Assembly (NCBI GenBank): GCA_965263355.1
Contig: CBDHHL010000025.1
Coordinates: forward strand, 32,001 to 96,000
DNA length: 64,000 bases
From: Leptolyngbyaceae cyanobacterium
Lineage (GTDB): Bacteria; Cyanobacteriota; Cyanobacteriia; Phormidesmidales; Phormidesmidaceae
Direction: 5' to 3'
Every line of letters begins with the position of its first letter. Positions within the stretch are counted from its first letter, which is position 1. Below, one piece after another: positions 17,824 through 43,804 of this stretch. A program made the position numbers and the translations under genes. The notes under the pieces are model-generated. The model was not told the origin of the DNA. It saw only the letters and a list, made by a program, of their open reading frames with translations, and searched no databases.

Positions 17824-17926
17824 TTCTTATCTTGAGGGGTCGGCTGCGACACAAACTCAGCTCACCTCTGCAAGGGATTACGTCTGCAGCATTGCCCTTG
17901 TCTTATGCAGAGAGGAAGTTCCTAAT

Positions 17927-18047
17927 GCCATCTCTTTCACCAACATTCACCGCTGTGGCGAACACTTGCAAGACTAAGCCCAACGTATCTACCGCTAGAA
18001 ATCGTTTTTGTCCTTTGATGAGCTTGCCCCATCAAAGCTGACGACTT
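17927..18047 (-). mobile_element. IS5-family transposase fragment
   Basis: Minus strand reads FDG/(frameshift)GKLIKGQKRFLAVDTLGLVLQVFATAVNVGERDG, matching the IS5 DDE motif GKxxKGRKRxxxVDTLG. Confidence 0.8.
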
Positions 18048-18140
18048 TATTCATCTGAACAATTTCCAAAGTATAGCTGATTGTGAGTACATGATGAGTG
18101 AATAAAATAATCTCAATATTTCTGAAAATTTCACTTCAAT

Positions 18141-18667: not shown

Positions 18668-19891
18668 GTGATTTTGTTCATGGATAGCGTTCGCATGATG
18701 ATGATGAATCATATAGTCCAATCTAACCTAACTCAATATGAAGCCGAGGCTTTAGGGCAACAGTTCAATTATACCAATGCGTTTAATCAACAATCTCAAC
18801 CAGCTTGTCAGCGAAGAGTTATCGATAAACTTCCGGACATCTGGATGGAAACAGAGGAATTAAAGCAGAATGTTTTTGAAAATCGCTTTCTTGAAATCTT
18901 TTATGGCGTTCGTGGCATCGAGAATGGGCTTAGCTCAAGCAATGTAATGTTGCACTACTCTGCCTCCATTGCAATTGTTCATGTCGCAAACTATTTATCG
19001 AAAAAGAATCTAAGTGTTAGCCTGATCGAACCGTGCTTTGATAGTCTTTTTCAGGTGCTGGAACATCAAAATATTCAGATTTCTCCCCTTCAAGAAGAGC
19101 TACTGCATGACAGTGACAGTATTTATGAAAATCTGGTGCGACATGTCCAAGCAGATGCCCTTTTTCTTGTAGATCCAAATAATCCTACAGGATTTACAAC
19201 ATTGGGGGAAAAAAACAGAAAGTCATTTGAGGAAATCATAAGGTTCTGCAAAGATTATGATAAAATCCTAATTTTTGATCACTGTTTTGCATCTTTTTTG
19301 GCTTTCGATAATCGAGTGAAGTTGTACGATACTTATCATCTTCTGGAAAAGTCTGGAGTCAATTATATGGTAATTGAAGACACTGGAAAGTTCTGGCCAA
19401 TTCAAAGTACTAAGGTAGGAGTTTTAAAAGTTGCTAAAACTTTGTATCAAGAGATGCATGACATTTATACATCTTATCTTCTTAATGTCTCTCCATTTGT
19501 CCTGAACTTCTTAAGTGCGTACATCTTGGAGTCGTATCATGATAATTTTTACTCTATTAGAAGCTTACTAGCAAGGAATAGAGAGGTTCTAAAAGAAAGC
19601 CTTAAAGGCCAAATCTTGAAAGTCCTTGATAGTGATGCTAATACAAGTGTAGCGTGGTGTAAGATTCAGGATTCTAGCTTTAAATCAACTGATCTACAAA
19701 GATTTTTAATTGAAGAAAAAGGAGTGCATGTTCTGCCTGGAACATTTTTCTACTGGAATGAACCCTATCGAGGCGAGAAATATATCAGGATTGCATTAGC
19801 AAGGGATACCGAAAATTTCATACAAGGAATAACTCTTTTGAAACAGGGTCTCGAAGAATTCACTAAAAAGTGTTGTTTTTCTAATAAATAA
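18668..19891 (+). CDS. Fold-type I PLP-dependent enzyme of the RohP/MppP (arginine oxidase) family
   Basis: NLTQYE, LIEPCFD, LFLVDPNNPTGF, FEEIIRFCKD, DHCFASF, IEDTGK(PLP Lys)FWP, LLNVSPFVLN, VLPGTFFYW, IRIALAR resemble RohP/MppP as I recall them. True start is probably one of the MMMM codons. Confidence 0.8.
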   Translation: MILFMDSVRMMMMNHIVQSNLTQYEAEALGQQFNYTNAFNQQSQPACQRRVIDKLPDIWMETEELKQNVFENRFLEIFYGVRGIENGLSSSNVMLHYSASIAIVHVANYLSKKNLSVSLIEPCFDSLFQVLEHQNIQISPLQEELLHDSDSIYENLVRHVQADALFLVDPNNPTGFTTLGEKNRKSFEEIIRFCKDYDKILIFDHCFASFLAFDNRVKLYDTYHLLEKSGVNYMVIEDTGKFWPIQSTKVGVLKVAKTLYQEMHDIYTSYLLNVSPFVLNFLSAYILESYHDNFYSIRSLLARNREVLKESLKGQILKVLDSDANTSVAWCKIQDSSFKSTDLQRFLIEEKGVHVLPGTFFYWNEPYRGEKYIRIALARDTENFIQGITLLKQGLEEFTKKCCFSNK

Positions 19892-19971
19892 TTTTTAGGT
19901 AACATTCTGAAGAATTACTACCAGTTCAAGGTGTAGTGAATTGGACAAAACCGCTTAGAAAGGTTAAAGCT

Positions 19972-21183
19972 ATGCAGTTAAATGACTTAGTGCACAACTG
20001 GAATAATTTTTCTCAAAGTGTTTCGAAGAACATTCACCTATGTGATGAAACATTGCGTGATGGGTTAGAAGGTGGTGTGAACCGGCTCCCTTCCCTGGAG
20101 GAAAAGCTAGATCTATTGAGTCTGGCAGATGCCTCGGGCATTGGCGACGTCATGGTCGGTTTTCCGGGGCAAGAGGTGACCTATCAGAATGCTCTTGCTA
20201 TTTGCAAAGGTGTGAAGCGTAAGGGACTGGAGACTCGACTTGGTCTACTAGGACGTATGGTTGAGGCAGATATCCAAGCCATTGATAATATTCGTCAAAG
20301 TAGTGGCTGCTCTGTGGTTGCTCATCTATTTATACCCTGTTCTCCGATTCGTCGTTATGTAGAACAGTGGGATATTGATGAATTAGAGAAACTAACTCGT
20401 TTTGGTGTTGGATTAGCGGTAAAACTTGGCTTACCCGTTAATTTCTCACCTGAGGATACGTCAAGAGCCGAGCCGAAGGTTGTTGAGCGTTTAAGTCGAC
20501 TTGCCGTTGAAGAAGGTGCGACAGAAATTACTATCTGTGACACGGTCGGTTGTCTTAATCCTGTAGGGACACAGCACCTCGTTCAGTTTTTTCGAGACTT
20601 TTTGGGTAAGGACAAGGAGCGAGTCCGATTAGACTTTCATGGTCATAATGATCGAGGATTAGCATTAGCTAATTCCTTAGCCGCAATTGCTGCAGGAGCT
20701 GATTGCATTCAAGGCACTATGCTTGGTATTGGTGAACGAGCAGGCAATGCTCCTCTTGACCTGATTATGGTCAATCTTCAGATGCAGGGATTGTGGAATC
20801 GTAACCCCCTGATAAATTTAAGAAAATACTGTACAGAGGTGGCCAGACTGTGTGACGTAAAAATCCCTGATAAATATCCAGTTTTTGGTAATCAGAGTTT
20901 CACAACGCAGATGGGGGTTCACGCATCTGCTATCCTTAAAGCAAAACTTCGTCAAAATGAGGATATAGCTGCCTGTATTTACTCTGGAGTTAATCCAAGC
21001 TTAGTTGGATTAAATTACAATATTCAGGTTGGGCCTTACAGTGGTCGTTCAAATGTCGAATATATTATGAATCAACATGGTATGCAGCTAACTGATGAAA
21101 CCATTGGTAATATTTTGGCAACAGCTCGTACTGAAAATCGAGTCCTAACAGAAACGGAAGTTCTTACATTAGCAAAACAATAA
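19972..21183 (+). CDS. LeuA/homocitrate-synthase-like (DRE-TIM) acyl-CoA:2-oxoacid condensing enzyme, no regulatory domain
   Basis: DETLRDGLE, PEDTSR, ICDTVG, HGHNDRGLALAN, GIGERAGN, GVHASAI; about 400 aa. ATG 19972 preferred over GTG 19936. Confidence 0.85.
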   Translation: MQLNDLVHNWNNFSQSVSKNIHLCDETLRDGLEGGVNRLPSLEEKLDLLSLADASGIGDVMVGFPGQEVTYQNALAICKGVKRKGLETRLGLLGRMVEADIQAIDNIRQSSGCSVVAHLFIPCSPIRRYVEQWDIDELEKLTRFGVGLAVKLGLPVNFSPEDTSRAEPKVVERLSRLAVEEGATEITICDTVGCLNPVGTQHLVQFFRDFLGKDKERVRLDFHGHNDRGLALANSLAAIAAGADCIQGTMLGIGERAGNAPLDLIMVNLQMQGLWNRNPLINLRKYCTEVARLCDVKIPDKYPVFGNQSFTTQMGVHASAILKAKLRQNEDIAACIYSGVNPSLVGLNYNIQVGPYSGRSNVEYIMNQHGMQLTDETIGNILATARTENRVLTETEVLTLAKQ

Positions 21184-21204
21184 ATGATCTAACCTAGAAC
21201 ATTA

Positions 21205-21362
21205 GGGCCTGTTAATTATTAACTTGATTGGTTTGATGTTCTCCTTTTTTTAAGGGGGCTAGGGATATCTTTAAGTCCTCCTCATAGGTTTTGATGAGCC
21301 CCCTTATTCCCCCTAGAAAGGGAGAAGCCAGAGAAAACATGAAGTTAATAATTAACACCTTC
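21205..21362. mobile_element. MITE, 158 bp, IS5-like ends
   Basis: Perfect 16-bp inverted repeat TGTTAATTATTAACTT (21210-21225) / AAGTTAATAATTAACA (21342-21357) inside 21-bp TIRs; TTA on both flanks (21202-21204, 21363-21365); internal CCTTTTTTTAAGGGGG-type repeat. Confidence 0.7.
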
Positions 21363-21412
21363 TTAGATTAGTCAAAATTATGGAATAGAATCATCAAGAG
21401 AACTACCTTTTT

Positions 21413-22189
21413 ATGCACTACTTGTCTTTGTTTTTATACCCACTGCTGATAATTTCAGTATCAGGAGTAATTTTCTGGTCTTGGGAACTTCAACAGCCAT
21501 TGCGCAAAATTCCACACTTGCCAACATTCCTTCAGGATCTGAAAGAACTACCTATTATTCTTCTATTTATTGTTCTTTCTGCAAAGATTTATGCATATTT
21601 AGAAAGTTTATATATTCTGCCATTTTTTGAGGTTCTAGGTCAGAAACATAACTGGATTCTGATTCTATCAAGCCCTTTATGGATAAGAGTTGTTGTTGCA
21701 ATTTTACTCAAAGATTTAATTGCATACTGGTATCATTGGATGATGCATCATAATCTTGTTCTTTGGCATGCTCATAAGTGGCATCATATGCAGCAGCAAA
21801 TGTATTGGTTGAAAGGAAATAAAAATTCTTTGCTAGCTAAATTTATTGCTAAGTGGGACTTCATTGGATTCGCACTTCTAGGAATTCCCTTAGATTTAAC
21901 GTTGTTTTTTATCACACTCTACTCATTTTTTACCTTTTTTGTTCATAGCAATGTTGAGTGGCGACCTTGGATGAAGTATGTTGAGTATGTGTTTGTAACT
22001 CCTCGCTATCATCTAGTTCATCACTCCAGTAATATTGAACTTCAACAAAAGAACTTGGGGGATGTGTTCACATTTTGCGATCGCATATTTGGCACTTATA
22101 TTTGTCCAACAACTTTTGATATCGAACATGAAGATTTTGGCCTTGACGAGGAAGAGCCCTTAACCCTAAGAGTCATCTTAGGACTCTAG
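21413..22189 (+). CDS. Sterol desaturase/fatty acid hydroxylase family membrane di-iron enzyme
   Basis: His boxes YWYHWMMHH, WHAHKWHH, FVHSN, YHLVHHS; NLG...DRIFGT; transmembrane segments. Confidence 0.9.
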   Translation: MHYLSLFLYPLLIISVSGVIFWSWELQQPLRKIPHLPTFLQDLKELPIILLFIVLSAKIYAYLESLYILPFFEVLGQKHNWILILSSPLWIRVVVAILLKDLIAYWYHWMMHHNLVLWHAHKWHHMQQQMYWLKGNKNSLLAKFIAKWDFIGFALLGIPLDLTLFFITLYSFFTFFVHSNVEWRPWMKYVEYVFVTPRYHLVHHSSNIELQQKNLGDVFTFCDRIFGTYICPTTFDIEHEDFGLDEEEPLTLRVILGL

Positions 22190-22195
22190 AAGACA

Positions 22196-23659
22196 ATGAC
22201 ATCTTATTTACTTACTAACTCTCAAAAAAGATGGGCTATTGCCGGAATTGGCACAAGTGCCTTAATGATTTCGACAGAGTTCTATATTGTCGGAGCTATT
22301 ATTCCTGTACTGATGGAGTATTTCCATGCAAGTTTTATGACAGTGCAGTGGATTATTCTAATTTATACGCTTGTCCTAACAGCCATGGTTCTTGGCGTAG
22401 CAAGGTTAGGAGACATCTACGATAAAAAACAGTTATTCTTGATTGGACTACTACTATTTACAGTTAGTTCATTGCTCTGTGGACTTGCATCTAGCATTAC
22501 GGCTCTAATTGTTTTCCGAGGATTACAGGGACTGGGAGCCGTGTTGATATGGGCGCTACGTAACGCAATTGTAACAGAAATATTTCCTGAAGACGAGAGG
22601 GGACAAGCAATCGGTTGGGTGACAGGACTTTCCTCTCTAGGGTTAGCGATTGGTCCAGGAATTGGTGGTTTGTTAATAGGTATTGGTGGTTGGCGTCTTT
22701 TATTTTGGATCAACCTTCCATTGGGGCTACTTGCCGGTTTAATTGTCGCTCGATATATTCCGAATTGCTTAGAGAACGGTCATTATAAAAAGTTTGATAC
22801 GATTGGGTTACTGCTGATGTTCATAACGTTGTCTTGTTTCGTCTTAGGAACATCGCGGTTACAAGATCTAAGCTCTATTGGGTTTCCTGAAATTGTGTTG
22901 ATGACTTTAAGTTTGGTCGGTTTCATATGTTTTTGGTACATTGAATCTCAGGTTGAAGAACCAATACTTGACTTAGAACTATTCCAGCTGCCTAAAATCA
23001 ATACAAATTTGCTGCTGTTTTTTGCAGTTTATATAATTGTTGGCCTTATTCAACTGGCATTTCCACTGTTCCTTGAATTGGGATTACACTACCCTACTAA
23101 TAAGGTGGGCTTTTTGCTAACGGTTTTACCATTGATGTCTGTTATTGTTTCACCTGTTTCAGGGTCACTTTCTGATCAATTTGGCGGTCGTAATGTTAGT
23201 TCTATTGGGCTTTTACTCATTATAATTGGATGCTTAGCATGCAGTACCTTAAATCAAGATTCAACAGTTATAGGTTTCTGCCTGCGGGGAATTCTTGTGG
23301 AATTGGGCCTGATTATTTCAGTAATACCAATCAGCAAAGTTGTTATGGATACAGTTCAACAGGAACAATTCGGAATTGCTTCAGGTTTACTGGCTCTCTC
23401 AAGAATGATTGGCATAGTCATGGGCACATGCTTATTTGGTATTTTCTTCTATATGTTTACTGTTTCTAATAGTAAATTACTGCCAAACCTTGAAAATAGT
23501 AGCAGTATGGCGAACCCATTGGATATGATGAGCTTACCGGTTATTACACTAATCCACAGTATAGACAGTATATTTCTTGCGATGGCTTTAATTGCCTCTG
23601 CTGCTGTTCTAATTCTTGTCTGGGAGTTACTCAGCATTAGCTGTAAAGAGAAGGCGTAA
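22196..23659 (+). CDS. MFS (DHA2-type) efflux transporter
   Basis: ARLGDIYDKK motif A, FRGLQGLG, GPGIGGLL motif C, WRLLFWINLP; many hydrophobic helices. Confidence 0.9.
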   Translation: MTSYLLTNSQKRWAIAGIGTSALMISTEFYIVGAIIPVLMEYFHASFMTVQWIILIYTLVLTAMVLGVARLGDIYDKKQLFLIGLLLFTVSSLLCGLASSITALIVFRGLQGLGAVLIWALRNAIVTEIFPEDERGQAIGWVTGLSSLGLAIGPGIGGLLIGIGGWRLLFWINLPLGLLAGLIVARYIPNCLENGHYKKFDTIGLLLMFITLSCFVLGTSRLQDLSSIGFPEIVLMTLSLVGFICFWYIESQVEEPILDLELFQLPKINTNLLLFFAVYIIVGLIQLAFPLFLELGLHYPTNKVGFLLTVLPLMSVIVSPVSGSLSDQFGGRNVSSIGLLLIIIGCLACSTLNQDSTVIGFCLRGILVELGLIISVIPISKVVMDTVQQEQFGIASGLLALSRMIGIVMGTCLFGIFFYMFTVSNSKLLPNLENSSSMANPLDMMSLPVITLIHSIDSIFLAMALIASAAVLILVWELLSISCKEKA

Positions 23660-23713
23660 GAGTATATTACGAATATCACATTACTAAACTTAGCTATCTT
23701 TTGAAGTAGAGCT

Positions 23714-24460
23714 ATGCAACATCACAAGTTATTTGATGATAAAGCTGATTTGTATGCAAGCTCCAGGCCAACGTACCCCAAAGAAATATATAACTATCTA
23801 TCTAGTTTATGCAGTTCAACGCTGACAGCATGGGACTGTGCCTGTGGAAGTGGTCAAGTAGCAATAGGTTTGATTGATAAATTTGAGCGGGTTTACGCAA
23901 CAGACATTAGCGAAAATCAGCTAACTAATGCCAAACTACACCCAAACATCACTTATAAAATATCCTCTGCTGAAAACACCAATTTTGGTGATGATTTTTT
24001 TGATCTTGTTTGTGTTGCCCAAGCTCTTCATTGGTTCAATTTAGAAAGCTATTGGAATGAAGTGCACAGAGTTCTTAAGCCCAATGGTGTGTTTTCAGCT
24101 TGGGGTTATCTTTGGTCACCTGTGGATGAGTCTATAGAATCAGTAATTCAAGAATATATCTGGGATATAGTTGAACCTTACTGGACACCGCAGCATAGTC
24201 TTTTATGGAATCGTTATCGCAACATAGACTTTCCTTTTCGCAAAATCGAATCACCAGTCTTCAAAATGAACATGCTTTTATCTATCGATGAGCTTTTCAA
24301 CTTAATTCATACAACTTCTGCTGCTCGTCGGTATATGGATGACCATGGGGATGATTTTTTCCGAGAAGCCTATACTGCTGTCAGTGAGATTTGGGGTAGT
24401 CTGATACAGAAGAGAAAGATAGCTTTTAGTCTCATATTTTATGCTGGCCGTAGCAGATGA
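23714..24460 (+). CDS. Class I SAM-dependent methyltransferase
   Basis: YASSRPTYP, AWDCACGSGQ motif I, ATDIS, DLVCVAQALHWF, VLKPNG. Confidence 0.9.
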   Translation: MQHHKLFDDKADLYASSRPTYPKEIYNYLSSLCSSTLTAWDCACGSGQVAIGLIDKFERVYATDISENQLTNAKLHPNITYKISSAENTNFGDDFFDLVCVAQALHWFNLESYWNEVHRVLKPNGVFSAWGYLWSPVDESIESVIQEYIWDIVEPYWTPQHSLLWNRYRNIDFPFRKIESPVFKMNMLLSIDELFNLIHTTSAARRYMDDHGDDFFREAYTAVSEIWGSLIQKRKIAFSLIFYAGRSR

Positions 24461-24794: not shown

Positions 24795-25670
24795 TTATCT
24801 TTCTTTGGGTGTTGACTTCAGCTGAGCACTGACTTCATTAGCCACAGCTTCCTTAGCTTTAGCCACTTCCATATCGGTCGATTCTTGAAGAAACTGCTTC
24901 AGATGAACTTGATTCACTTTAGCAATAAAACTCTCAACCGACTCCTGCACTTTGCGCTTTCGCTCTTTCTCATCGGGTAGATCAAAAAATCGATAGGATG
25001 GGGTTACACCCAAAATAAATTTCTCTTGCTCAGCTTCTAGCAGCTCTACAGCCCTGTTGGCAGCCATCCAGTTTTCTTGAAATGGAAAAGACGTCGCTAA
25101 GCTGGTGACGATGGAGGCAATGGCTGGGAAAATGACGGGTAACCACTTAATCCAGGATACTTGAATATCAACCTTGTCTAATAGAACAAGAATAGGAGTG
25201 ACACCAGACAAAATAATGGTCGAAATTTGGAACAAGTAGTAAATATTTCGAGAATTGGCGCGAGTATTTTTATAGTCATCAATCAGTTCTTGAGAGTACT
25301 GGATCGCGCGACCTCGCATCAGGTTCATTGATTCATCAGCAATGGCATTACCGAACAGACGACTATAAAGTTCTGCTTTAATCTGATTTTGTTTTTGCTG
25401 AGAAAAGCGGCGATAGTCACTCAGAGATTGACGATTTAAGAGCAAAAGTAGGAGTAAAATAATCGTTGCTGCCACGACTAAGATGATAATTTCTCGACGC
25501 TCCAGTAGCAGTAGTGCCAGGGCACCGAGGCCAACACAGATGGCGATCAGCAAAAATTCGATCAGGCTAAACCGTAAAGGAGTTTTGGGCTCTACGTCTA
25601 ATTCATTTTTGCTAGCCGTCGGATTGGCAATGTTGTTCTTTGTAATCGATTGCTTACTTGCTGGACTCAT
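24795..25670 (-). CDS. DUF4231/SLATT-like membrane protein with extra N-terminal TM hairpin
   Basis: Two-TM core (ISTIILSGVTPILV; PVIFPAIASIVTSL) followed by FQENWxxxxxxxELLEAEQEKF, the DUF4231/SLATT pattern. Confidence 0.7.
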   Translation of the reverse strand: MSPASKQSITKNNIANPTASKNELDVEPKTPLRFSLIEFLLIAICVGLGALALLLLERREIIILVVAATIILLLLLLLNRQSLSDYRRFSQQKQNQIKAELYSRLFGNAIADESMNLMRGRAIQYSQELIDDYKNTRANSRNIYYLFQISTIILSGVTPILVLLDKVDIQVSWIKWLPVIFPAIASIVTSLATSFPFQENWMAANRAVELLEAEQEKFILGVTPSYRFFDLPDEKERKRKVQESVESFIAKVNQVHLKQFLQESTDMEVAKAKEAVANEVSAQLKSTPKER

Positions 25671-29062: not shown

Positions 29063-29689
29063 TTAACAAACCCGATAGGTCCAAATTTGCAAATAAATAT
29101 CAGGCTCAGTTTCAGGATGATTCTGAAAGGGGTCTCCAGTTTCAACTAATGTCCATTTTTCTGCTGCCTCAAGCGCTGGGAGCTTGTCCTTGAAGTCGCT
29201 TTTTTCATAATAGTCAGGACGAATTGTAAAGATGATATGACCTCCAGGTTTCGTAATGCGAATCAGCTCATCAAAACCACTACTAGGCGCGTGACCAATG
29301 GTGAATGTTCCCACACTGACAACAGCGTCAAATGAATCCGAAGAGAAATTTAGGGGAGTGCCTAATATCCCCTGATGGAGGCCTGTATAAACATTCTTTT
29401 TGCGGGCTTCCTCTAACATACCGATGGACAAATCCATCGCTTCCAAATTGGTATAGCCACGCTGATGCAGAACCTGTCCCACAAGTCCCGTCCCCGCTCC
29501 AGCATCCAAAATTTTAGATTCTTGAGAAACGTATTTAGCCAAGGTGTCGACGGTTAATTCTGGACAGAGATAATTCTCAGGTGGTAGATCACTATCGTAT
29601 TTCTTCGCCCAATCATCATAGCGTTCAGCTAATTCTTGAGCATTTTTGGAACTGTAAACCCAATGGACATTATCTGTTTTTGTAGTCAT
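29063..29689 (-). CDS. Class I SAM-dependent methyltransferase, co-oriented downstream of the NRPS-PKS
   Basis: YDDWAKKYD, ILDAGAGTGLVG, AMDLSIGML, FDAVVSVGTFTIGHAP, ITKPGG. Confidence 0.9.
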   Translation of the reverse strand: MTTKTDNVHWVYSSKNAQELAERYDDWAKKYDSDLPPENYLCPELTVDTLAKYVSQESKILDAGAGTGLVGQVLHQRGYTNLEAMDLSIGMLEEARKKNVYTGLHQGILGTPLNFSSDSFDAVVSVGTFTIGHAPSSGFDELIRITKPGGHIIFTIRPDYYEKSDFKDKLPALEAAEKWTLVETGDPFQNHPETEPDIYLQIWTYRVC

Positions 29690-29755
29690 GACTCTTGACT
29701 CGTGTAAAAGTTACCAAAGTTATCTTGTACAAATTACCGCCCTTGGGGCAGGTGT

Positions 29756-32700
29756 TTATACTTTTCTAACCAAATCAACCGTGAATTGTTGAGCTAAGAC
29801 ACCTACATGAGGTGCTTTCAACAGGGTAAAATGATCGCCTGGAACTGTCTGAACCGTCAGGGAATCAGACAGTGATTGCCAGCCCCAAGTAGGATCCGTC
29901 AGTGTTTGGATGGCGTTAGGCAAATAATCACCTAAAATTCCTATCTCCTGGGCGCGGATAAAGGTCATAGGAATTCCTTCGAGCTGCTGAGGCTGGTAAC
30001 AGGCGCTGGCTTGAGTATTTGCCTTATACACGGCCAAAGACCGCCTTAAGTCAATTGTAGTGATGTTCTGTCCTGCTGTTTGCAACGCCGCTAGTAAAAC
30101 CTTGATCGGATCGTTTGTGACGCTAAATTCAGTCGGTGAGAGTGCTAGCGGTTGATCCACTAACCCTTGATAAAACTTGGCGAGTTCAATGACGTATTGG
30201 GTATCTGACCACTGATCAGAGGTTTGCTCAATATCAGGAACTTCCCGCTGGATATCTATCAGAACTAATCGAGAAATCTGGTCGCCCTGAGCTTGCAATT
30301 GCTGTGCAATCTCAAATGCCACTTTGCCACCGAAGGAGTATCCACCTAGATAATAGGGGCCTTTGGGTTGCACTGCTTTTATAGCTCGAATATGGTGGGC
30401 CGCTATATCCTTCATATTAGTGTACGGAACAATATTCTCATCTAACCCAAGGGAACGAAGCCCATAAAAGGGTTGATCTGTTCCCAATGCCTGAGATAAG
30501 GGCTGAAGATCTAGAACTGTTCCTAAAATGCCAGAGGCACAGAAGATAGGTGGCTGAGAACCCTGGGGTTGAATCGGTACTATGGTCGAAGAGAAAGACG
30601 GTGAACTGTTGCCATTATGTTGGGGCACCGCTGATTGAGGAGAATTTTGCCTAAGACTGGTGCCTTCAGTCTCAGGAACAATCAGCTCCATCAGTCGATC
30701 AACCAGGGCTGTAATGGTGGGATAGTCGAACACTAGGGTTGTGCGCAGGTTGCACCCTAAACTTGCTTGAAGGTCGTTCCTCAATTCAACTGCTGCTAAG
30801 GAATCTAACCCCAAGTCTACCAATCGTTGATCCAGATCAAGTTCCTCAGCTGTTTTCAAGCCTAGAGTTTTTGTGACTAACTTATAAACATGCTTTAATA
30901 CCAGGTCTCGGCGCTGATCAGCAGGCGTAGTCTGTAAAATAACTCGGATATTCTGAGTAGCCGATTGAACGGTGACCACTGAGGCGACCTGCTCATAAAA
31001 TCGGGGACGTTGTGAGAACTGTTGCACCCACTTTGACCATTCAACGGGCATTACTCCAATTTGACCTGCAGCCTGCGGCAATAGTTGACCAAGGATAGAC
31101 AATCCAGCAGTCGGTGCAATGTTAGCCAACCCCCAGTCTGCTAAGCGGTCCTGCTGGTCTTGATTAAGGCGAGCACTCATACCGACTTCCCCCCAAGGCC
31201 CCCAGTTGATACTGACCATAGGCAACCCTAGGGACTGGCGATGATAGGCCAAGGTATCCATAAAGGCATTGGCCGCTGCATAGCTGGCTAACCCATGGGA
31301 CCCTAACAGCGAGGTTAAAGATGAGAAGCAGACGAAGAACTCCAAAGGCTGTTGTTGCGTCAGTTGTTGTGTTAGCTGATGTAGGTTCCAAGTTCCTTGG
31401 ACTTTTGCCGCTAATCCTTGGGCAAACCGAGGCCAATCTTGTTGCCATAGGCCACCAAACTCAACCACGCCTGCTGCATGGATAATCCCCAGCAGCGAGC
31501 GCTCAGACGCTTTCAATGCATCCAAAATTGCTCTAACCTGCTGGGCATCGGCAATATCTGCCTGGACAATAGTAATATCAGCACCTGCCTGTTCAAGCCT
31601 CTGAAGCTGTTGTTGCATATGGGGCTGAGCCTGACTCCGACCGACTAAAACCAACTGCCGAGCACCGTGGGCAACCAGCCATTCTGCCACCTGCAAGCCT
31701 AGGGCTCCCAATCCCCCTGTAATCAGATAAGACCCATCTGCATGGCAGGTGAACGATTGACCTGATAAAGCATCGTTGCGGCGTTTGAGTCGGGCAACAT
31801 ATCGGGTTTGGTTGCGCCAGATGACTTGCTCTTCGCCGTCCTGCGATCGCAATTCTGCCAGTAGAGAGGAGACCAGGGTTTCATCATGGGCTTGAGGCAA
31901 TACATCAACCCGAACACAATGCAGATCTGGATGTTCTAGGGCAATGACTTTGCCCATGCCCCAGAGAGGAGATTGAGCCAATCCAGGAACAGTTGTTGAT
32001 GAGGCTGATGCACCATTGTACTGACCTGAACCGTTATGGCTGCTGGCATGAAGATTTGCAAAGGCTTGAGCGCCTTGGGTCACTAACCAGAGATGGGGCA
32101 ATTTGCCATCACGACCAATCAAGCTCTGAATTAAATGTAATGTGCTAGCACAGCTTATCTGTGCCGCCGCTTCCAAATCCTGAGTCGTTAGCTCTACCCC
32201 AGCTGTAGGCGCTTTCAAACTCCACAGATGAACAATACCCTGACACTCAGGTACTGTTTCCAAAAGCTGCTTAAAATGCTCCACATTAACTGGGTCGACT
32301 TGGAAGACCTGCTCACTGATTTGCCCATAGGTTTTGCCAGGGTAGACGAGGATGGTGCGATCACCTTGAGCTTGCAAAGCATTAACCAGTTGCGGTCCAA
32401 CACCTTGGATATCCGCAAAAATCAGCCAATGACGGGATTGATAAGGACTGGGCTGACTGGGTTTAGGCTGCCACTCAACCTCATAGAGCCACTGATCAAA
32501 CGCGTCAACAGATCTCTCCGATGTAGCAGGCTCTGGCGTAGAACTGAGTGCTCCATTCTGTTCTAGTAATCCACCATTGCGATACCAAGCCGGAGCCTCA
32601 ACCCAATGGCGCTGTCGCTGGAATGGATAGGTGGGAATCGGCTGCCGACATCGACTGTAGTCCTGGTCAAATCTTTGCCAGTCAATGGTGACCCCCTGTT

Positions 32701-35700
32701 GGTAGAGCGTCGCCAAACTGGTGAGCAATTGTGCCCAGTCTGTGCGCTCAGGGTGCAAACTGGGTAGCCACAACCCTGAATGCTCACTTAAACATTGGCG
32801 ACCCATGCCTAACAAAACAGGCTTGGGACCTATCTCTACTAGGATTTGTACGTTTTCTTGAGCCAATACATCCATGCTGGTCCTAAATTGAACCGCTTGT
32901 CGGATATGTTGACACCAGTAGTCGGGCTGGAGCACGGCATTGGTCACCAGCGTACCTGTGACATTGGACACTAGCGGAATCTGAGGGGGAGCAAAGGTGA
33001 CCTGTTCGACCACCTGAGCAAACTCGGCTAGCATTGGCTCCATCAGCGCTGAGTGAAAAGCATGGGACACCTGAAGCTTTCTATATTTAATGTTGGCCCG
33101 CTCACTCTGAACACAAATCGCATCTAGCTCCCGCTGATCACCAGAAATTACGATGCTCTCCGGACCATTGAACGCTGCTATGGACACATTGGGATAGTTT
33201 TGCAGAGCAGTCTTGGCCTGTTCTGCTGTTGCCAATAGCGACACCATACCGCCCCCAGCGGGTAACGCCTGCACCAATCGACCTCGCAGAGCGATCAGTT
33301 TTAGGCCATCTTCCAAGCTAAAGACACCCGCCACACAAGCAGCGACATATTCCCCCACGCTGTGCCCCATAAGGATATCAGGCGTAATACCCCAGGATTG
33401 CCACAGTTGATATAAGGCATATTCAATGGCAAAAAGCGCAGGCTGACTGTAAACAGTCTGATGCAGGAGAGCGTCTTTATCAGCTTCAGCCGCGTAGAGA
33501 ATATCAATTAGCGAGCGATCCAGGTAGTCTTGAAGAATATCGTCACAGCGATCAAGCGCAGCCCGAAATGTTGGTTGCGTGTCGTAAAGCTGCCGACCCA
33601 TGTCAACATACTGAGACCCCTGGCCTGTAAATAGAAACGCAAGCTTTCCTTGAGCTGAAATAGTTGGAGAGGTCATCCCACCAGTTTCCAACCAGTCCTG
33701 AAGCTGTTGACCCAAATTTGCTTTTGACTCCGTGACGAACGATAGCCGTTCTTGAAAATGCTGGCGACCGACATTGGCGGTAAAACAAATATCCGCAAGC
33801 TTTGATTCGGACTCTGACTCTGACTCTGTATCTAAATACTCCAGATAGCGCTGAGCTAATGACTGAAGGGCAGGGACCGTTTTAGCCGATAAGGTCAAAA
33901 GGTGGTGCGATCGCTCTCCCTCGACCATCCCGTCTGACACCTGACGTCTAACGTCTGACGTTGCGGGCGCTTCCTCCAACACCACATGACAATTGGTACC
34001 CCCCATGCCAAAGGAACTTACTCCGGCGCGACGAGGCGTGCCATTCCGGGTCCAGTCTGTCAGCTCGGTATTGACGTAAAAGGGACTATTGGCAAAATCA
34101 ATATTGGGGTTGGGTTGCTCAAAATGCAGGCTCGGAGGCAATTGCTGATGCTTCAAAGCCAATGCGGTTTTAATCAGCCCTACCACCCCTGCAGACTCAA
34201 TCAAGTGGCCAATATTGGTTTTGACCGAGCCAATGGCACAGAAACCCTTCTCAACCGTGCTTTGGCGAAATGCCTGGGTGAGCGCAGTGATTTCAATCGG
34301 ATCACCCAAGGCCGTCCCTGTGCCGTGGGCTTCTATATAGCTAACGGTGCTGGGGTCCACATCCCCGGCTGCCAGGGCGCTTGTAATTACCTCCGCCTGC
34401 CCCTCAACACTAGGAGCGGTATAACCCACCTTAGCTGCACCATCATTATTTATGGCCGACCCTTTGACCACAGCGTAGATGTGATCCCCATCGGCCATCG
34501 CCTGATCGAGAGCTTTGAGGAGAACCACACCGACGCCATTGCCAAAGACAGTCCCTTTCGCCTGGGCATCAAACGCACGACAATGGCCGTCCGGCGAGCA
34601 AATCATATCGTCCTGGTAGAAATACCCCACTTCCTGAGGAACAGAAATGGACACCCCACCTGCCAGGGCCATATCACACTCACCGCTGAGAATACTCTGA
34701 CAGGCCATATGGACAGAGACCAACGAGGTTGAACAGGCCGTTTGTACATTCACACTGGGGCCGGTCAAATTGAGTTTGTAAGACACCCGTGTGGGCAGAA
34801 AGTCCTTGCTATTGGCCAACCGCACTTGCAGATCAGAGGCCGACCCCAGGAAAGTCCGCTGGGCTGAAAAATTTCTCTGGGGATGCACATTATTAATCAA
34901 ATAAGTATTCATCCCAGACCCGGCATACACACCAATCAACCCGTCATAGGTCTCAGGGTTATAGCCTGCATGTTCAAGCGTTTCCCAAGCAGACTCTAAA
35001 AAGATCCGCTGCTGCGGGTCCATAATCTCTGCTTCTCGACGGCTATAGCCAAAAAAGGTGGCGTCAAACCGGTCAATATCAGGGAGAACCGCACCGACTT
35101 TCACGTAGTCAGGATGCTGCAGCAGTTCTGGCTCTAACCCCGCCAACTCCTGGGCGGTAAATGGGGTGATTGATTCTACCCCCTGCTGTAGGTTTTGCCA
35201 AAATTCATCCACATTGGCAGCCCCCGGCACACGGCAAGCAATACCAATAATGGCAATGTCAGTGGTGGATTGTTTTCTAGCGGACACTCGCCGCTTAGCG
35301 GACACTCGCCGCTTAGCGGACACTCGCCGCTTAGCGGACACTCGCCGCTTAGCGGACACTTGCCGCCCATTTACTTGAGCACTCGATGACTGAGATTGTG
35401 CCGCTGGGGCCTCAGTAAGATAGTCGGCCAGAGTTTGAATAGTAGGGTATTGAAACAGACTGACAATCGACAACCGAGACGTCAACTGTTCTAGATCCGA
35501 GATATCAGCGCCAGCCCCTAAAACACTCGGATCTGCTCTGAACTGATCTGCCAGCTGTTGATACACCTGGGTCAGCAAAAGGGAATTCCCCCCCAGCTCA
35601 AAAAAGTTGTCAAGGGTTCCTACCTTATCCAGTTGAAGCACTTCTTGCCACACCTGGGCCAGATATTGCTCCATCTCAGACTGGGGCTCCACCATAGCCG

Positions 35701-38671
35701 TTGCTAACTCTGGACGAGAACGATCCGGAGCAGGTAATGCCCGACGATTTACCTTACCGTTCTGGGTCAGCGGTAACTCTTCTAAGGTGACAAAGGTAGC
35801 TGGCACCATGTAGTCCGGTAGCTGCTCTTGCAAATACTGACGCACCTGGGGCTCTAGCTTAACCGCCACCTGTCCTTGCAGGGGATTATTGGCATAGGCA
35901 CTCCAAGGCAATGTTGTTTTAGGGGGCTCTTGAAAACAGGGCGGCGAAGATATCGCCACCTGGTCTGGATAAAGTAACACGTCGTAGCATGTCTTATCGG
36001 TGGACCAGGTGATAGCAGCGGCAAAGGACTGTTCTTTGGCAAGACTCCAAATATCTTCTGGCTCGATTCCAGCCTTGTCCACGTTCTCATCAGCTACTCC
36101 GAGACGATCTCGCATCTCGGCCACAGTAGCAGGTTGTTCCGTAGAGCCACCATTCTGACCACTGGCTGATTTACTCTCCATCCATTCCAGTACCTGCATC
36201 TCAGAGGTTAACCGGGCATTTGGAATCCCAGTAATGAGAAAATGCTCTGAGGAATTCTCCTGCAACCGTTGCTGAACTGCTTCCAGGGTTAAGCCATCTG
36301 CTTTCCAATTAAGCTGCTGGGTCTGAACAGGGGCAGTGGGTTCCGGGCCAATGTGGAGAATGGCGTCGTAGCGGAACTTACTCATCTCATTATGGGCACA
36401 GCCTCGTCTCAGTTGAATATCTACCTGAGAAATCGGCAGATGCCGTTGCAATGCAGTGAAAAACTCGGGGGCAATGGCCATTTGCCCTTCCTGCACCATC
36501 TGCTTTCGAATTCGCTGGTGCAGTTGTTGGGTCGATAGTCCAGGAGGAGCCTGATATAACTGAATCGACGCGTGAAACGCTTCTAGCAACGGCAGGCTAC
36601 GTACATCACCCAAGAACAACCGTCCGCCTGGCTTAATCGCCTTGACCACCTCGGTAATTACCTTGACGAGATAATCAATCCCAGGAAAGAGCTGGACAAC
36701 CGAGTTAATAATGACCGTATCTAGGGAATTGGGTGCTAGGTCCGTCACACTGTCAGCCGCCCCCTGACGTAGGGTGACATGGGACCAATCTCCATCCATT
36801 TTTTGCATCTGGGCATTGATATACCCCAGGGCTTTAGGCGCAATATCCACCCCACAGTAGGATTGACAATGGGGTGCCACACCAAACAGCAGCATGCCCG
36901 TGCCACAGCCAATTTCTAAAACGTCTTGGGGCTGCCCCATGAGAATACGTTCGAGCGTCCCATCTAACCACTCTCGCATCTCAGAGGCGGGAATCGGTGC
37001 GCCAGAATAGCTATCATTCCAGCCATTGATATTAAATGTGGGATCTTCCACCTCTAGGGTTTCTTGAGCGTAGGCTAAATCCCATAATTCTTGCCACTGT
37101 GAGACTTGTTCTGCCTGGACATCGGCCTGGGCATTTGTCTCGTCATCAGTGGTCTCTGCGGGGTCCTCTCCTTGATAATTGGCATCTGGCACCATGTAGG
37201 CCACAAGCCGTTTGCCACCCCCCCCATTGGCTTGCTCATCCCTGGCCACAACAACACTTTGGCGTACGCCTGGATGCCGATTCATGGTGGCTTCAATTTC
37301 ACCTAGCTCAATCCGAAAACCTCGGATTTTTACTTGATGGTCAATGCGACCTAAAAATTCAATGTTGCCGTCAGGGAGATACCGCGCTAAGTCACCTGTC
37401 TTATAAATTCGAGGGGAATAGACTATGTCCACGGTTGCCGCATCATTACTCTGTTTGGCAAACGGATTAGGAATAAATCTCTCTTGGGTTAAGTCAGGCC
37501 GATTCCGATAGCCCCGTGCTAAGCCATCTCCACCGATATATAATTCACCAACGTCACCCACCGACACTGGGCGCAGGTCTTCGTCCAAAATGTAAATTAA
37601 GGTATTTGCGATGGGACGACCAATGGAGGCAGGAGTATTGGGGCGAGACGGGTCAAAGGATGAATGCTGGATAGAATGCACCGTGGACCAAATTGTGGCT
37701 TCTGTGGGGCCATACATGTTCCAGACACTGTCCACGCAATCCAGCAATTGCTCCGCTAAATCCGCTGGAAAGGCTTCTCCACCACATAGTACTTTTAACC
37801 CGGACTGTCCCTGCCATCCCGCCGCCAAGAGCATGTACCAGGTTGCTGGAGTTGCCTGCATCATGGTTGCATTGGTTGTCCGCAACAATCGAGCCAAGTC
37901 TGGACCTGATGAAGCGACCTCTCGGCTGGCAATGACGACTTGGGCACCTACCACTAGAGGCAAATGCAGCTCTAGCCCAGCAATGTCAAAACAAACTGTT
38001 GTTACGGCAACCAGTACGTCCTGATCTGTTATGCCAGGACGCTGGGCCATGGACGTGAGGAAGTTAACAACGGCTCGATGCTCGATTTGAACACCCTTTG
38101 GTTTGCCAGTTGATCCGGAAGTATAGATTGTGTAGGCTAAGTGAGTGGCCGTAACGTTACTCGTGGGATTTTCTTGACTACCCTGAGAAATGTCACCCCA
38201 ATCGGCATCTAAACAAATAACTGTGAGATCGTCTAAGGCGAGTCCTGTGGATAAATGCCCTGTAGCTAGGGACGATTGAGTGAGGAGAATCTTAGCTTGA
38301 GCGTCCTCCAACATATAGGACAGGCGCTCCAACGGATAGGCGGGATCCAAAGGAACGTATGCTCCACCAGCCTTAAGAATTCCTAAAATGGCCACGACCA
38401 TAGTAATCGAACGGTCCACACAGACACCCGTCAATGTATCTGGGCCAACATTTAAACTCTGGAGATAGTGGGCAAGTTGGTTAGCTTTTTGATTAAGTTC
38501 TCTGTAGGTAACCTGTGTTTGATTGAATCTGATTGCGATCGCATCTGGTGTACGCTCTACCTGCTCCTCGAACAGCTGATGCAAGCAACTATCAAACGGA
38601 TATTCTTTAGCCGTTTGATTCCACTCAATCGGTACAATATTGCGATCCTTTACCATAAACACAGGCAACAT
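29756..38671 (-). CDS. Hybrid NRPS-PKS: A(Gly, interrupted by N-MT)-PCP-KS-AT(malonyl)-KR-ACP-TE
   Basis: A domain: [70 protein letters not shown], between A8 and A9. [73 protein letters not shown]...PGDH. No C domain. Confidence 0.95.
35278..35367. repeat. 18-bp tandem repeat x5 in the PCP-KS linker
   Basis: TAGCGGACACTCGCCGCT four times exactly plus one variant; encodes R(Q/R)VSA(K/R) x5. Confidence 0.95.
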
Positions 38672-40244: not shown

Positions 40245-41399
40245 ATGAGTATATACAATACGTTTACGTCAGAGTCAGTATCAGCAGGTCATCCTGACAA
40301 AATGGCTGACCAAATTTCGGATGCCATTTTGGATGCCATGCTCAAGGATGATCCCCACTCGCGGGTGGCGGTGGAAACCCTAGTCAAAACTGGCATGGCG
40401 ATTGTTGCTGGAGAGGTTCGCACCAACACCTATGTGGATTTGGAAGATATTGTTCGCGACGTCATTTTAGGTATTGGCTACGACAGTTCCGATGTGGGGT
40501 TTGATGGAGCCTCCTGTGCCATTGTCAACGCTATTGGTAAACAGTCCAGTGACATTGCCATGGGGGTGGACGAGGCTGAAAACAAAGATTTGGGTGCTGG
40601 TGACCAAGGCCTTATGTTTGGCTATGCCACCAACGAAACTGATGTGCTGATGCCCGCTCCGATTTACTATGCCCACCGCCTAGTGGAGCGCCAGGCAGAG
40701 TTGCGTAAAACCGGAAAACTCTCTTGGCTACGACCAGACGCTAAAAGTCAGGTGACCTTGAGATACGAAAACGGCAAACCTGTTGCTATTGATGCCATTG
40801 TGCTATCCACTCAACATGATCCCGATGTCACCCTGGGTGACATTCGTGAAGCTGTCATGGAGGAGATCATTAAGCCTGTGCTTCCCCATGACTGGTTGCA
40901 TGTGGGTACTCAGTACCACATCAACCCCACCGGGCAATTTATCATTGGTGGACCGGTGGGAGACTGTGGGTTAACTGGACGCAAGATTATCGTCGATACC
41001 TACGGTGGTATGGCACGTCACGGTGGTGGTGCATTCTCAGGCAAGGACCCCTCTAAAGTGGATCGATCAGCAGCCTATGCAGGTCGCTATGTGGCTAAAA
41101 ACATTGTTGCTGCGGGACTGGCTGATTTGTGCGAAATTCAAGTGTCCTATGCCATTGGTGTAGCTGAGCCTACATCTATCTCCGTCAATACTTTTGGCAC
41201 TGGTAAGCTTGAAGATGACAAAATTGCCACGTTGGTGCGAGAACACTTTGACCTGCGTCCCCAAGGTCTGATTGATATGCTGAATTTACGTCGCCCTATT
41301 TATCAGCAAACGGCGGCCTATGGTCACTTTGGTCGGGAACTGTCTGATTTTACTTGGGAACAAACTGACAAGGCCGAGCCGTTAAAAGCAGCACTGTAA
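40245..41399 (+). CDS. metK: S-adenosylmethionine synthetase
   Basis: [55 protein letters not shown]. Confidence 0.98.
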
Positions 41400-41429
41400 T
41401 TTTTGAGAAAACCTAAGAAAACGAAACCT

Positions 41430-42812
41430 ATGAGCACTTCAACACTCACCCGCGACTATAAAGTTGCCGATATTAGTCTGGCTAGCTGGGGACGCAAGGA
41501 AATTGCCATTGCAGAAGGTGAAATGCCGGCTCTCATGGCCATTCGCAAAAAATATAGCGATAGCAAGCCTCTGGCTGGAGCCAAGATTATCGGCTGTATC
41601 CACATGACCATTCAAACCGCTGTCCTAATCGAGACCCTAATCGAGCTGGGTGCAGAGGTGCGCTGGTCCTCCTGCAATATCTTTTCTACCCAAGACCATG
41701 CTGCTGCTGCGATCGCAGAAGTCGGTGTGCCCGTCTTTGCCTGGAAGGGAGAAACCGAAGACGAATATATGTGGTGCATTGAACAAACCTGCCGAGCTAC
41801 CGATGGCAAGCTGTGGGATGCCAACATGATTTTGGATGATGGCGGTGACCTAACAGGCTACATTCACGAAACCTATCCCGATATGCTCACCCATATCCAT
41901 GGTGTTACCGAAGAGACTACCACCGGAGTACATCGCCTGTACGAAATGCTAGAAAAGGGTGAACTCAAAATTCCTGCCATCAACGTCAATGACTCGGTCA
42001 CTAAAGCTAAAAATGACAATAAATATGGCTGTCGTCATAGCTTGAATGATGCCATTAAGCGCGGTACCGATCACCTGATGGCAGGTAAAAAGGCCTTAGT
42101 GATTGGCTATGGTGATGTTGGTAAAGGCTCAGTGGCCTCTCTTCGCCAGGAAGGCATGATTGTTAAGGTGGCTGAGGTAGATCCCATCTGTGCTATGCAA
42201 GCCTGTATGGATGGCTATGAGGTGGTATCTCCCTATGTCGATGGTGTAAATAATGGCGTTGCTAGTCTTAACAAGACACTTTTGGCCAACATTGATTTGT
42301 TGGTTACTGCTACGGGAAATGTGAATGTCTGTGATGCCCCTATGCTGACAGCCTTAAAGCCTGGAGCAGTCGTTTGTAATATCGGTCATTTTGACAATGA
42401 GATTGATACGGCTTACATGCGTCAGACCTGGCGCTGGGAAGAGGTCAAACCGCAGGTACATCAGGTTTACCGCAGCGATGATCCCCAAGACTTTCTGATT
42501 TTGTTAGCAGAAGGTCGTTTAGTAAATTTAGGGAATGCTACTGGCCATCCGTCTCGAATTATGGACGGGTCATTTGCCAATCAGGTGTTGGCTCAGATGT
42601 TCTTATTTGAGCGGAAATTTGCCGATAAGTCTGATCTGGAAAAGGCTGCAGAAATTACTGTGGACGTGTTGCCCAAGCAATTGGATGAGGAAGTTGCTCG
42701 CTATATGGTTGAAGGGTTTGGTGGTGTGATTACTCAGCTAACATCCACCCAGGCTGACTATATCAATGTGCCAATGTCTGGTCCTTTCAAGCAAGATAGC
42801 TACAAGTACTAA
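41430..42812 (+). CDS. ahcY: S-adenosylhomocysteine hydrolase
   Basis: [57 protein letters not shown] 41430 preferred. Confidence 0.98.
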
Positions 42813-42916
42813 CCGAAGTCCTCAGGACGGCTTTATAAAGGTCTATCTTTTGTCAAGTCGTCCTATTTTTCTCCTAGCATTAAAGTCTCTACAGTTCTTC
42901 AAAAAAGGCTATACCA

Positions 42917-43804
42917 ATGACGTCACTCCCCATTAGTTTTGAATTCTTTCCACCGAAAACGGCAGAGGGAGGGGCTCAGCTAATGGAACAGTATGCTATT
43001 TTAGCGGCCTGTCAGCCTGAGTTTTTTTCGATTACCTATGGAGCGGGGGGGACGACGCGCGATCGCACCAAACAACTTGTCCTAGATATTAATGCCAAAG
43101 AGATTCCCGCCGTTCCACACCTATCGTGCATTGGTGATACTCGGGCATCCTTGCGAACAATATTGGATACTTATAAGGGCGCAGGTATTCAAAATATTGT
43201 CACCTTGAGAGGCGATCTGCCTAACGATATGGATGATGTGGCCAATGAGTTTCACTACGCTGATGAGTTGGTCACATTTATTTGTCAAGAGTACAAAGAT
43301 ACATTTAATTTAATTGTGGCGGCCTACCCTGAGGTTCATCCTGAAGCTAAAAATGCTCAGCAGGACTTAGTCAACTTTAAACGCAAGGTTGACGCTGGAG
43401 CCGTCGCTGCCATTACTCAATATTTCTACAATCCAGACGCCTACGAAGACTTTGTGAATCGCTGTCATCAGGCAGGAATCACTATCCCCATTTATCCAGG
43501 GATTATGCCGATCACCAATTATGAACGGTTAGCTCGATTTAGCCGCATGTGTGGGGCACAAATTCCCCAATGGATTGAAAATCGCCTGCTTGATTATCAA
43601 GATGATCCGTCAGGGTTACAGGCCTTTGGGTTAGATGTGGTTACCCAGCTATGTGAAAAGTTAATAGCGCTGGGTGCACCTGGATTTCATTTTTATACGT
43701 TGAATCAGGCAACGCCTACCCTAAAAATTCTAAAAAATCTAGGACCTACAGTGGCCTATGAATCTACCTTAAACCTAGCGTCAGAAAAACTTTTAGCTCA
43801 TTAA
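42917..43804 (+). CDS. metF: 5,10-methylenetetrahydrofolate reductase
   Basis: SFEFFPPKT, SITYGAGG, LRGD, AAYPEVHP, KRKVDAGA, ITQYFY, PGIMP, HFYTLN. Confidence 0.97.
   Translation: MTSLPISFEFFPPKTAEGGAQLMEQYAILAACQPEFFSITYGAGGTTRDRTKQLVLDINAKEIPAVPHLSCIGDTRASLRTILDTYKGAGIQNIVTLRGDLPNDMDDVANEFHYADELVTFICQEYKDTFNLIVAAYPEVHPEAKNAQQDLVNFKRKVDAGAVAAITQYFYNPDAYEDFVNRCHQAGITIPIYPGIMPITNYERLARFSRMCGAQIPQWIENRLLDYQDDPSGLQAFGLDVVTQLCEKLIALGAPGFHFYTLNQATPTLKILKNLGPTVAYESTLNLASEKLLAH

Follow-up and report, generated by a model that had tools for sequence, protein, structure and literature searches.

Is a pyridoxal 5'-phosphate (PLP) enzyme of the O2-using RohP family still an oxidase once its catalytic histidine has been replaced, and what is made when it is encoded beside a LeuA-like synthase, a membrane desaturase and an exporter? 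This question is raised by positions 18668-24460 of a 64,000-nucleotide stretch, called here the window, from a Leptolyngbyaceae cyanobacterium (contig CBDHHL010000025.1, positions 32,001 to 96,000). At slightly less than even odds, we propose that the PLP proteins carrying the motif N-A-F are a sub-family of active O2/PLP oxidases which moved past arginine hydroxylation, and perhaps past arginine too. It would feed an alkylmalate synthase and an SxtD-type desaturase, giving an undescribed class of exported cyanobacterial metabolites made without nonribosomal peptide synthetase (NRPS) or polyketide synthase (PKS), for example an oxidised guanidinoalkylmalate.

Four of the five genes form a conserved cassette

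The open reading frame (ORF) listing and Pfam matches reveal five ORFs, all on the + strand. In order, they encode a fold-type I PLP enzyme (PF00155), an HMGL-like/DRE-TIM protein (PF00682), a PF04116 hydroxylase, a DHA2-like major facilitator superfamily (MFS) protein (PF07690) and a class I methyltransferase (PF08241). Both the common orientation and the family assignments made in a preliminary description of this DNA were borne out. The reading frame of the PLP gene extends back to GTG 18668, where the residue numbering used here begins; the likely starts are ATG 18695 for the PLP gene and ATG 19972 for the synthase gene, which give the lengths of the database proteins (398 and 403 aa). Intergenic gaps are 80 (to ATG 19972), 229, 6 and 54 bp. 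A literature search that covered few subscription papers found no published description of this gene set.

Ten other loci (L008, L014, L015, L021, L022, L043-L046 and L048) emerged when synthase, PLP enzyme and hydroxylase were used as queries. The PLP enzyme, synthase, hydroxylase and exporter follow each other in identical order in nine of them, with 51-72% identity. L021 has the last three genes, on a contig that stops short of the PLP gene. The exporter is encoded in all ten loci. The methyltransferase is encoded in none, although the sequence available beyond the exporter gene spans 1.25-9.2 kb. The conserved unit is thus four genes and the five-gene unit put forward earlier was rejected, although four of its members do travel together. 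The term orphan fits the cluster only insofar as it has no known product. Flanking genes are mostly unrelated among the ten loci, with the exception of L043 and L045, which have common neighbours.

The cassette is rare. It was detected in 6 of the 389 genomes of the family of G234, together with one relic (L091), and in 1 of the 144 genomes of the family of G004; the PLP gene was found in none of the 48 genomes of the order of G647 (E 1e-60). These searches were built around known carriers and took in many incomplete genomes. All homologues are cyanobacterial, with database names including Nostoc sphaeroides, Richelia, Tolypothrix and Pseudanabaenaceae. The cassette points to an undescribed exported metabolite across several cyanobacterial families.

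A RohP relative in which the catalytic histidine is replaced

The first protein of the cassette (18695..19891, +) scored 373 bits against RohP (6C3A, E 1.8e-110), 163 against Plu4, 156 against MppP and at most 36 against ordinary aminotransferases. The last identity was rejected on these scores, and the RohP/MppP-like assignment proposed earlier holds. The structural model (predicted local distance difference test score 92) matched RohP (6C3D) with a template modelling (TM) score of 0.93, against 0.75 or less for ordinary aminotransferases, and with 44% identity in the structural alignment. The MppP equivalog TIGR04462 was matched below its cut-off (158.7 versus 450). PLP oxidases that use O2 make up a small class of enzymes and, to our knowledge, arginine is the only substrate known for them.

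The part of the PMC12464687 supplement used here lists 15 active-site residues conserved in RohP, MilM and MppP. Twelve of them are kept in the window protein (L16, T17, E20, Y92, S95, F119, N167, D198, K235, K243, L266 and R367 in RohP numbering) and three are replaced: His34 by Phe39, Asn121 by Ser126 and Asp241 by Ser247. The first change lies in N37-A38-F39 (18776..18784, +), which takes the place of RohP D32-A33-H34 with loss of the catalytic His. S126 (19043..19045, +) stands where RohP has N121 and MilM N118. The third change ends the segment 19388..19408 (+), which runs from the retained PLP lysine K241 to S247.

These replacements are not peculiar to the window. Among the best 120 of 631 homologues, the His34 column holds His in 107, Phe in 11 and Arg in 2. 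The 11 Phe-bearing proteins form one clade beside a His-bearing protein (SH-aLRT 99; tree of 50 rows, near-copies dropped; like every tree used here, it comes from a fast IQ-TREE run with SH-aLRT as the sole support measure). Asp32, Asn121 and Asp241 are lost as well in all 11, while the PLP- and carboxylate-binding residues are invariant in all of them. In 150 distant representatives, His34 is kept in 120 of the 130 with a residue there, and Asp241 is matched by an acid (D or E) in 139 of the 148 with a residue at that position. N-A-F occurs in all nine cassette loci with a visible PLP N-terminus, and in none of the nine non-cassette RohP loci where the N-terminus is visible. No published natural homologue lacking the His was found in a search that took in few subscription papers and not the alignment figure of the MilM preprint (10.64898/2026.02.25.707955). 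Parts of PMC7497351, PMC6603273 and 10.1101/2023.03.21.533663 were also drawn on.

The gene context changes together with the histidine. A dihydrodipicolinate synthase (DHDPS)-like aldolase adjoins all seven His-type RohP genes in the cyanobacterial loci compared and none of the 12 His-less ones, window included; it is absent from the window and from all ten other cassette loci. The DHDPS-like aldolase needs a 4-hydroxy product. The available part of the MilM preprint (10.64898/2026.02.25.707955) describes His34 as strictly conserved, cites RohP H34A as retaining oxo-product formation and reports that MilM N118A gave only the oxo product. The absence of the aldolase beside His-less genes, together with these mutants, therefore led us to a model in which the enzyme acts as an oxidase only.

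The PLP genes of the Phe clade are under purifying selection. The ratio of nonsynonymous to synonymous substitution rates (dN/dS) was 0.10-0.16 in the six unsaturated pairs out of 21, none of which includes the window gene, similar to the 0.09-0.20 of His-type RohP genes.

A second His-less type, with Arg in place of His, occurs in L003 and L004, where Asp241 is kept and the gene adjoins 2-ketoarginine methyltransferases matching TIGR04543 above cut-off. These loci (L003:9986-15494 and L004:3468-9191) also encode a 150-aa protein, two PhyH dioxygenases and a CmcI-like methyltransferase. The 150-aa protein recurs in His-type loci and gave no PDB or NCBIfam match. Azomycin-like loci with RohP and aldolase genes were also seen in L001, L002, L005, L007, L047, L049 and L050, with varied tailoring genes and with NRPS-like genes near L005, L047 and L050.

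The partner enzyme belongs with Claisen-type synthases

The second cassette gene (19972..21183, +) encodes a DRE-TIM protein that we assign to the Claisen-type alkylmalate synthases, without a regulatory domain. R29, D30, E161, H223, H225, H317 and Y337 are invariant in 50 alignment rows and the post-barrel subdomain PF22617 is present; R29-D30 is the R-D motif, E161 the catalytic Glu and H223-x-H225 the HxH metal site. The closest folds were methylthioalkylmalate (MAM) synthase, on top, then homocitrate synthase (HCS) and isopropylmalate synthase (IPMS), with about 25% identity to all solved members. NCBIfam equivalogs for LeuA, NifV and homocitrate synthase were matched below cut-off (best 200 bits versus 462.9).

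The Gln of the motif RDGxQ, which we take to be typical of Claisen-type DRE-TIM synthases and which is Q in the aligned relatives, is replaced by Glu33 in all 25 rows of a clade named here RDGLE. Every cassette synthase falls in this clade (support 97). Its only other member with a known context is that of L006, the sister of the cassette synthase (65% identity), which follows a His-type RohP gene, an aldolase gene and a TIGR04543 2-ketoarginine methyltransferase gene and precedes a fused LeuD-LeuC gene. With a MATE transporter gene, this locus (L006:9986-17799) is a possible arginine homologation locus and a relative of the cassette. No RohP gene was found near the three RDGLQ relatives with known context. 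One RDGLQ-type synthase gene is followed by acyl-CoA ligase and cytochrome P450 genes (L023:3157-7429).

The pocket residues give mixed signals on the substrate. Thr187 is MAM-like (position of MAM1 Thr257). Glu185 is specific to the RDGLE clade (14 of 14 proteins) and begins the strand that carries the pocket residues T187 and C189; it may be the counter-ion of a long cationic chain, a reading suggested by homocitrate synthase structures. The pocket L93/N157/S159/T187, aligned through HCS and IPMS and not to HphA directly, does not match the A73/D157/A159/M186 given for HphA in the portion of PMC12961565 used here, and no HphA, HCS or IPMS column of its Table 1 is fully matched.

SxtD-family desaturase, exporter and accessory methyltransferase

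The third gene (21413..22189, +) encodes a membrane diiron desaturase/hydroxylase of the SxtD family (PF04116) with the His boxes HxxxH, HxxHH and HxxHH. It is 35% identical over 256 aa, its full length (E 3e-54), to the desaturase of a locus with SxtG, an SxtA-type protein and a deaminase-like SxtB. In the part of PMC7073992 used here, SxtD is called a sterol desaturase, and a double bond is its likely contribution. In the tree, the cassette desaturases form a clade separate from SxtD. Their sister (56% identity, SH-aLRT 100) is found in L061; this locus (L061:5068-8507), which holds in order an arginine:glycine amidinotransferase homologue, an EamA transporter, the desaturase and a second EamA transporter, looks like a minimal guanidino-metabolite locus. 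Other members of the family adjoin amidinotransferase homologues (one confirmed by PDB) or sugar aminotransferases, and because of the latter the family is not guanidine-specific. The cassette offers a small system for learning what SxtD-family desaturases do.

Two further groups of loci came from this family. L062, L063, L065 and L066 contain a conserved cluster of an amidinotransferase homologue, a sulfotransferase-family protein and tandem SxtD-family desaturases, to which L063, L065 and L066 add TauD-like and EamA genes. L096, L097, L101 and L105, found by the desaturase search, carry saxitoxin-type biosynthesis genes, checked against PDB for L096.

The fourth gene (22196..23659, +) encodes a DHA2/EmrB-like MFS exporter (TIGR00711, 210.9 bits, below the cut-off of 230.2). 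The methyltransferase gene downstream (23714..24460, +), outside the conserved core, has a cassette-like GC content at third codon positions (GC3). Its product matches 4HG2 (E 2.8e-43) and is distantly Tmt1-like (3G5T, E 3.1e-11). No close orthologue was found in the ten genomes searched; the best match, 37% identical over the full length, lies on another contig of G580.

A proposed pathway and its alternatives

From these family assignments we infer reactions, substrates, step order and product as follows. The RohP relative would act as an oxidase only, converting L-arginine or a close guanidino analogue with O2 to a 2-oxo acid without hydroxylation. The short LeuA-like enzyme would then add acetyl-CoA to give 2-(3-guanidinopropyl)malate, whose malate skeleton would be kept because the cassette has no dedicated LeuCD/LeuB. 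Before or after this step, the SxtD-family enzyme would desaturate or hydroxylate the chain, and the MFS protein would export the product. In this genome, the accessory methyltransferase may esterify a carboxylate. The outline given earlier, from amino acid to 2-oxo acid to an alkylmalate that is oxidised and exported, is upheld at the level of family assignments; the replaced His34, Asn121 and Asp241, the SxtD-family membership of the hydroxylase and the repeated breakage of the PLP gene had gone unnoticed there. Also upheld is the reported lack of LeuCD/LeuB: tblastn of the window found no LeuC/D homologue and the window ORFs scanned include no LeuB-type family.

As an architecture, oxidase-only supply of a 2-oxo acid followed by acetyl-CoA addition, diiron oxidation and MFS export is probable. 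With arginine as the substrate, in which case the four genes would yield a small exported acid bearing a guanidine group, we put the probability at about 0.4. Arginine is slightly favoured because the sister of the synthase adjoins a 2-ketoarginine methyltransferase and the sister of the desaturase adjoins an amidinotransferase. If so, the oxidised guanidinoalkylmalate could resemble alkylsuccinates that inhibit carboxypeptidases, compounds on which our literature search found no paper.

Several observations weigh against this reading. Only two or three origins underlie the His/aldolase pattern, which does not amount to 19 independent cases. Seven SxtD-family loci in the tree have sugar-aminotransferase contexts, by their labels and, for three, by Pfam. 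The synthase residues Leu93, His118 and Ser159 are IPMS-like and suit a small aliphatic chain. In the Phe group, the Asp241 position carries S, N or G in all 11 proteins, with Asn in seven, and the Asn at position 273 of the window protein is S or T in nine of 11. The PLP gene is broken in three of nine loci (a frameshift in L008, an in-frame stop in L022 and an internal deletion in L048), and L091 retains only the desaturase and a split exporter. Finally, MilM H31A kept only about 10% of the oxo product, according to the part of 10.64898/2026.02.25.707955 used here.

The best-surviving alternative, unlikely yet to be taken seriously, keeps the same architecture with an oxidase switched to a neutral amino acid (citrulline/glutamine, or of methionine/leucine type), a non-arginine member of the family. 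In the Phe clade, none of Asp32, His34, Asn121 and Asp241 is retained, and their surroundings have gained no invariant acid; the loss of Asp241, most often to Asn, permits a neutral substrate. Since Asp241 is lost here but kept in the Arg type beside a ketoarginine methyltransferase, the Phe clade may indeed have switched substrate. The synthase also carries Thr in the place of MAM1 Thr257, a site at which an amide makes MAM1 less active, and MAM synthase is its top fold match. On the other hand, the equivalents of Thr17 and Glu20 are kept in all 11 proteins and the Thr of the T-S/A motif in nine, and the sisters of synthase and desaturase both come from guanidine contexts. Moreover, the guanidinium-binding role of Asp241 is one that we presume, the residue being confirmed only as a listed active-site residue.

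It is doubtful, and clearly more so, that the synthase starts a one-carbon homologation which housekeeping LeuCD, LeuB and a transaminase would finish, giving a homo-amino acid (e.g. homoarginine) that is oxidised and exported. This would fit the L006 sister synthase, encoded ahead of a fused LeuD-LeuC, and the described homologation pathway does use a transaminase encoded outside its cluster (PMC12961565, in the part used here). That pathway, however, has its own clustered hphCD and hphB, and LeuC/D is absent from all ten other cassette loci as well as from the window.

There is a slim chance that the PLP protein is dispensable or decaying, with the 2-oxo acid supplied by host transaminases, or that many hosts carry the cassette as a mere relic. 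The broken genes and L091, which lacks the PLP gene, would agree with this, as would a lower mean identity within the clade for the PLP enzyme (0.64) than for the synthase (0.74). Against it stand the dN/dS values, comparable to those of His-type RohP, and the invariance of all catalytic PLP residues. The L022 stop is recent or an assembly error, because a near-identical intact protein (P0129) exists.

Least probable is that the desaturase supplies the lost 4-hydroxylation and that the DRE-TIM protein is a retro-aldolase replacing RohR, giving guanidinoacetaldehyde or a 2-aminoimidazole-type product: transmembrane GntB does hydroxylate arginine in guanitoxin synthesis and Glu33 stands where relatives have Gln, presumably the position of the catalytic His in DmpG aldolases, but the Claisen post-barrel subdomain is present with H317 and Y337 invariant, synthases precede aldolases in the fold search (E 1e-26 versus 1e-14) and L006 carries this synthase type plus an aldolase of its own.

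Whichever substrate is used, arginine as we prefer or another, this natural His-less clade under purifying selection is a direct test of what sets two- versus four-electron oxidation, and of whether O2/PLP chemistry reaches other amino acids.

Surroundings of the cassette

The five-gene block has a GC content of 0.386 versus 0.452 for the window, and of 25 ORFs examined its five rank lowest in GC3 (0.329-0.346). The AT-richness reported earlier is real, with a modest GC3 contrast, as two nearby genes come close (0.349 and 0.350). About 600 bp upstream, a short, stop-interrupted frame near 17830..18070 (-, ends approximate) may be a decayed IS5-family transposase fragment; its 17906-18031 part matches NF033580 at E 0.0068, so that the IS5 scar described before is present as a fragment and its family assignment is weak. 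Promoter-like (15 versus 21.6 expected) and terminator-like (6 versus 5.1 expected) hits were at chance level. Two runs of a single study, which may be the source, have contigs that match the window DNA apart from one variant base.

Directly downstream of the cluster, 24795-25670 (-) encodes a SLATT-domain membrane protein (NF033634 above cut-off). Further on, 29063-38671 (-) and 40245-43804 (+) contain a single NRPS-PKS with a stand-alone methyltransferase, adjoining metK, ahcY and metF. Its domains are, in order, adenylation with embedded methyltransferase, thiolation, ketosynthase, acyltransferase, ketoreductase, acyl carrier protein and a thioesterase-like end. With adenylation residues that we take to be a glycine-type code, it could yield an N-methylated, carnitine-like 4-amino-3-hydroxybutanoate. 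Two AAA-domain proteins of similar size and with the same Pfam matches are encoded about 5 kb apart at 43904-45454 and 49184-50731 (-).

Comparison with known systems

Yeast Tmt1, a trans-aconitate 3-methyltransferase that also methylates 3-isopropylmalate, resembles the window methyltransferase in its N-terminal 160 or so residues (similarity confined to residues 8-166) and is otherwise distant. The generic bacterial methyltransferase 4HG2 is much closer, and the window enzyme is not conserved with the cassette.

Guanitoxin synthesis is also cyanobacterial and uses a membrane enzyme and a PLP enzyme acting on arginine. GntC, however, is 17% identical to the cassette PLP enzyme, which scored 74.6 bits against a cut-off of 415 with the GntC equivalog NF041364; no GntB-named model matched the hydroxylase even at E 10 and the cassette holds no other gnt gene. 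The guanitoxin parallel drawn in the preliminary description is accordingly weak, and the link was rejected. A saxitoxin link was rejected too: the cassette desaturase resembles SxtD over its whole length and in its His boxes, but it belongs to a separate clade, no other sxt gene is in the cassette and sxtA, sxtB and sxtG are absent among the window ORFs scanned.

With IPMS, HCS, MAM synthase and HphA, the cassette synthase has in common the R-D motif, the Glu, the HxH metal site and the post-barrel subdomain and, as in MAM synthase, there is no regulatory domain. It differs in its low identity, the RDGLE motif, another pocket set and the lack of isomerase and dehydrogenase genes in the cassette.

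The PLP enzyme has the fold and most listed active-site residues of the hydroxylases RohP, MilM and MppP and of the desaturases Ind4 and Plu4. With His34, Asn121 and Asp241 replaced, it falls outside both characterised groups, though the cassette resembles an arginine-oxidase pathway. Its partner is a Claisen synthase, and not MppR or a DHDPS-like aldolase of the type that we take to be named RohR or MilN. Also close to the cassette are the azomycin-like cyanobacterial loci with a His-type RohP and a DHDPS-like aldolase (L001, L002, L005-L007, L047 and L049). The Phe clade nests among their RohP enzymes and L006 has the same synthase type. The cassette, in contrast, lacks the aldolase, the 2-ketoarginine methyltransferase and LeuDC, and carries the desaturase and the MFS exporter instead.

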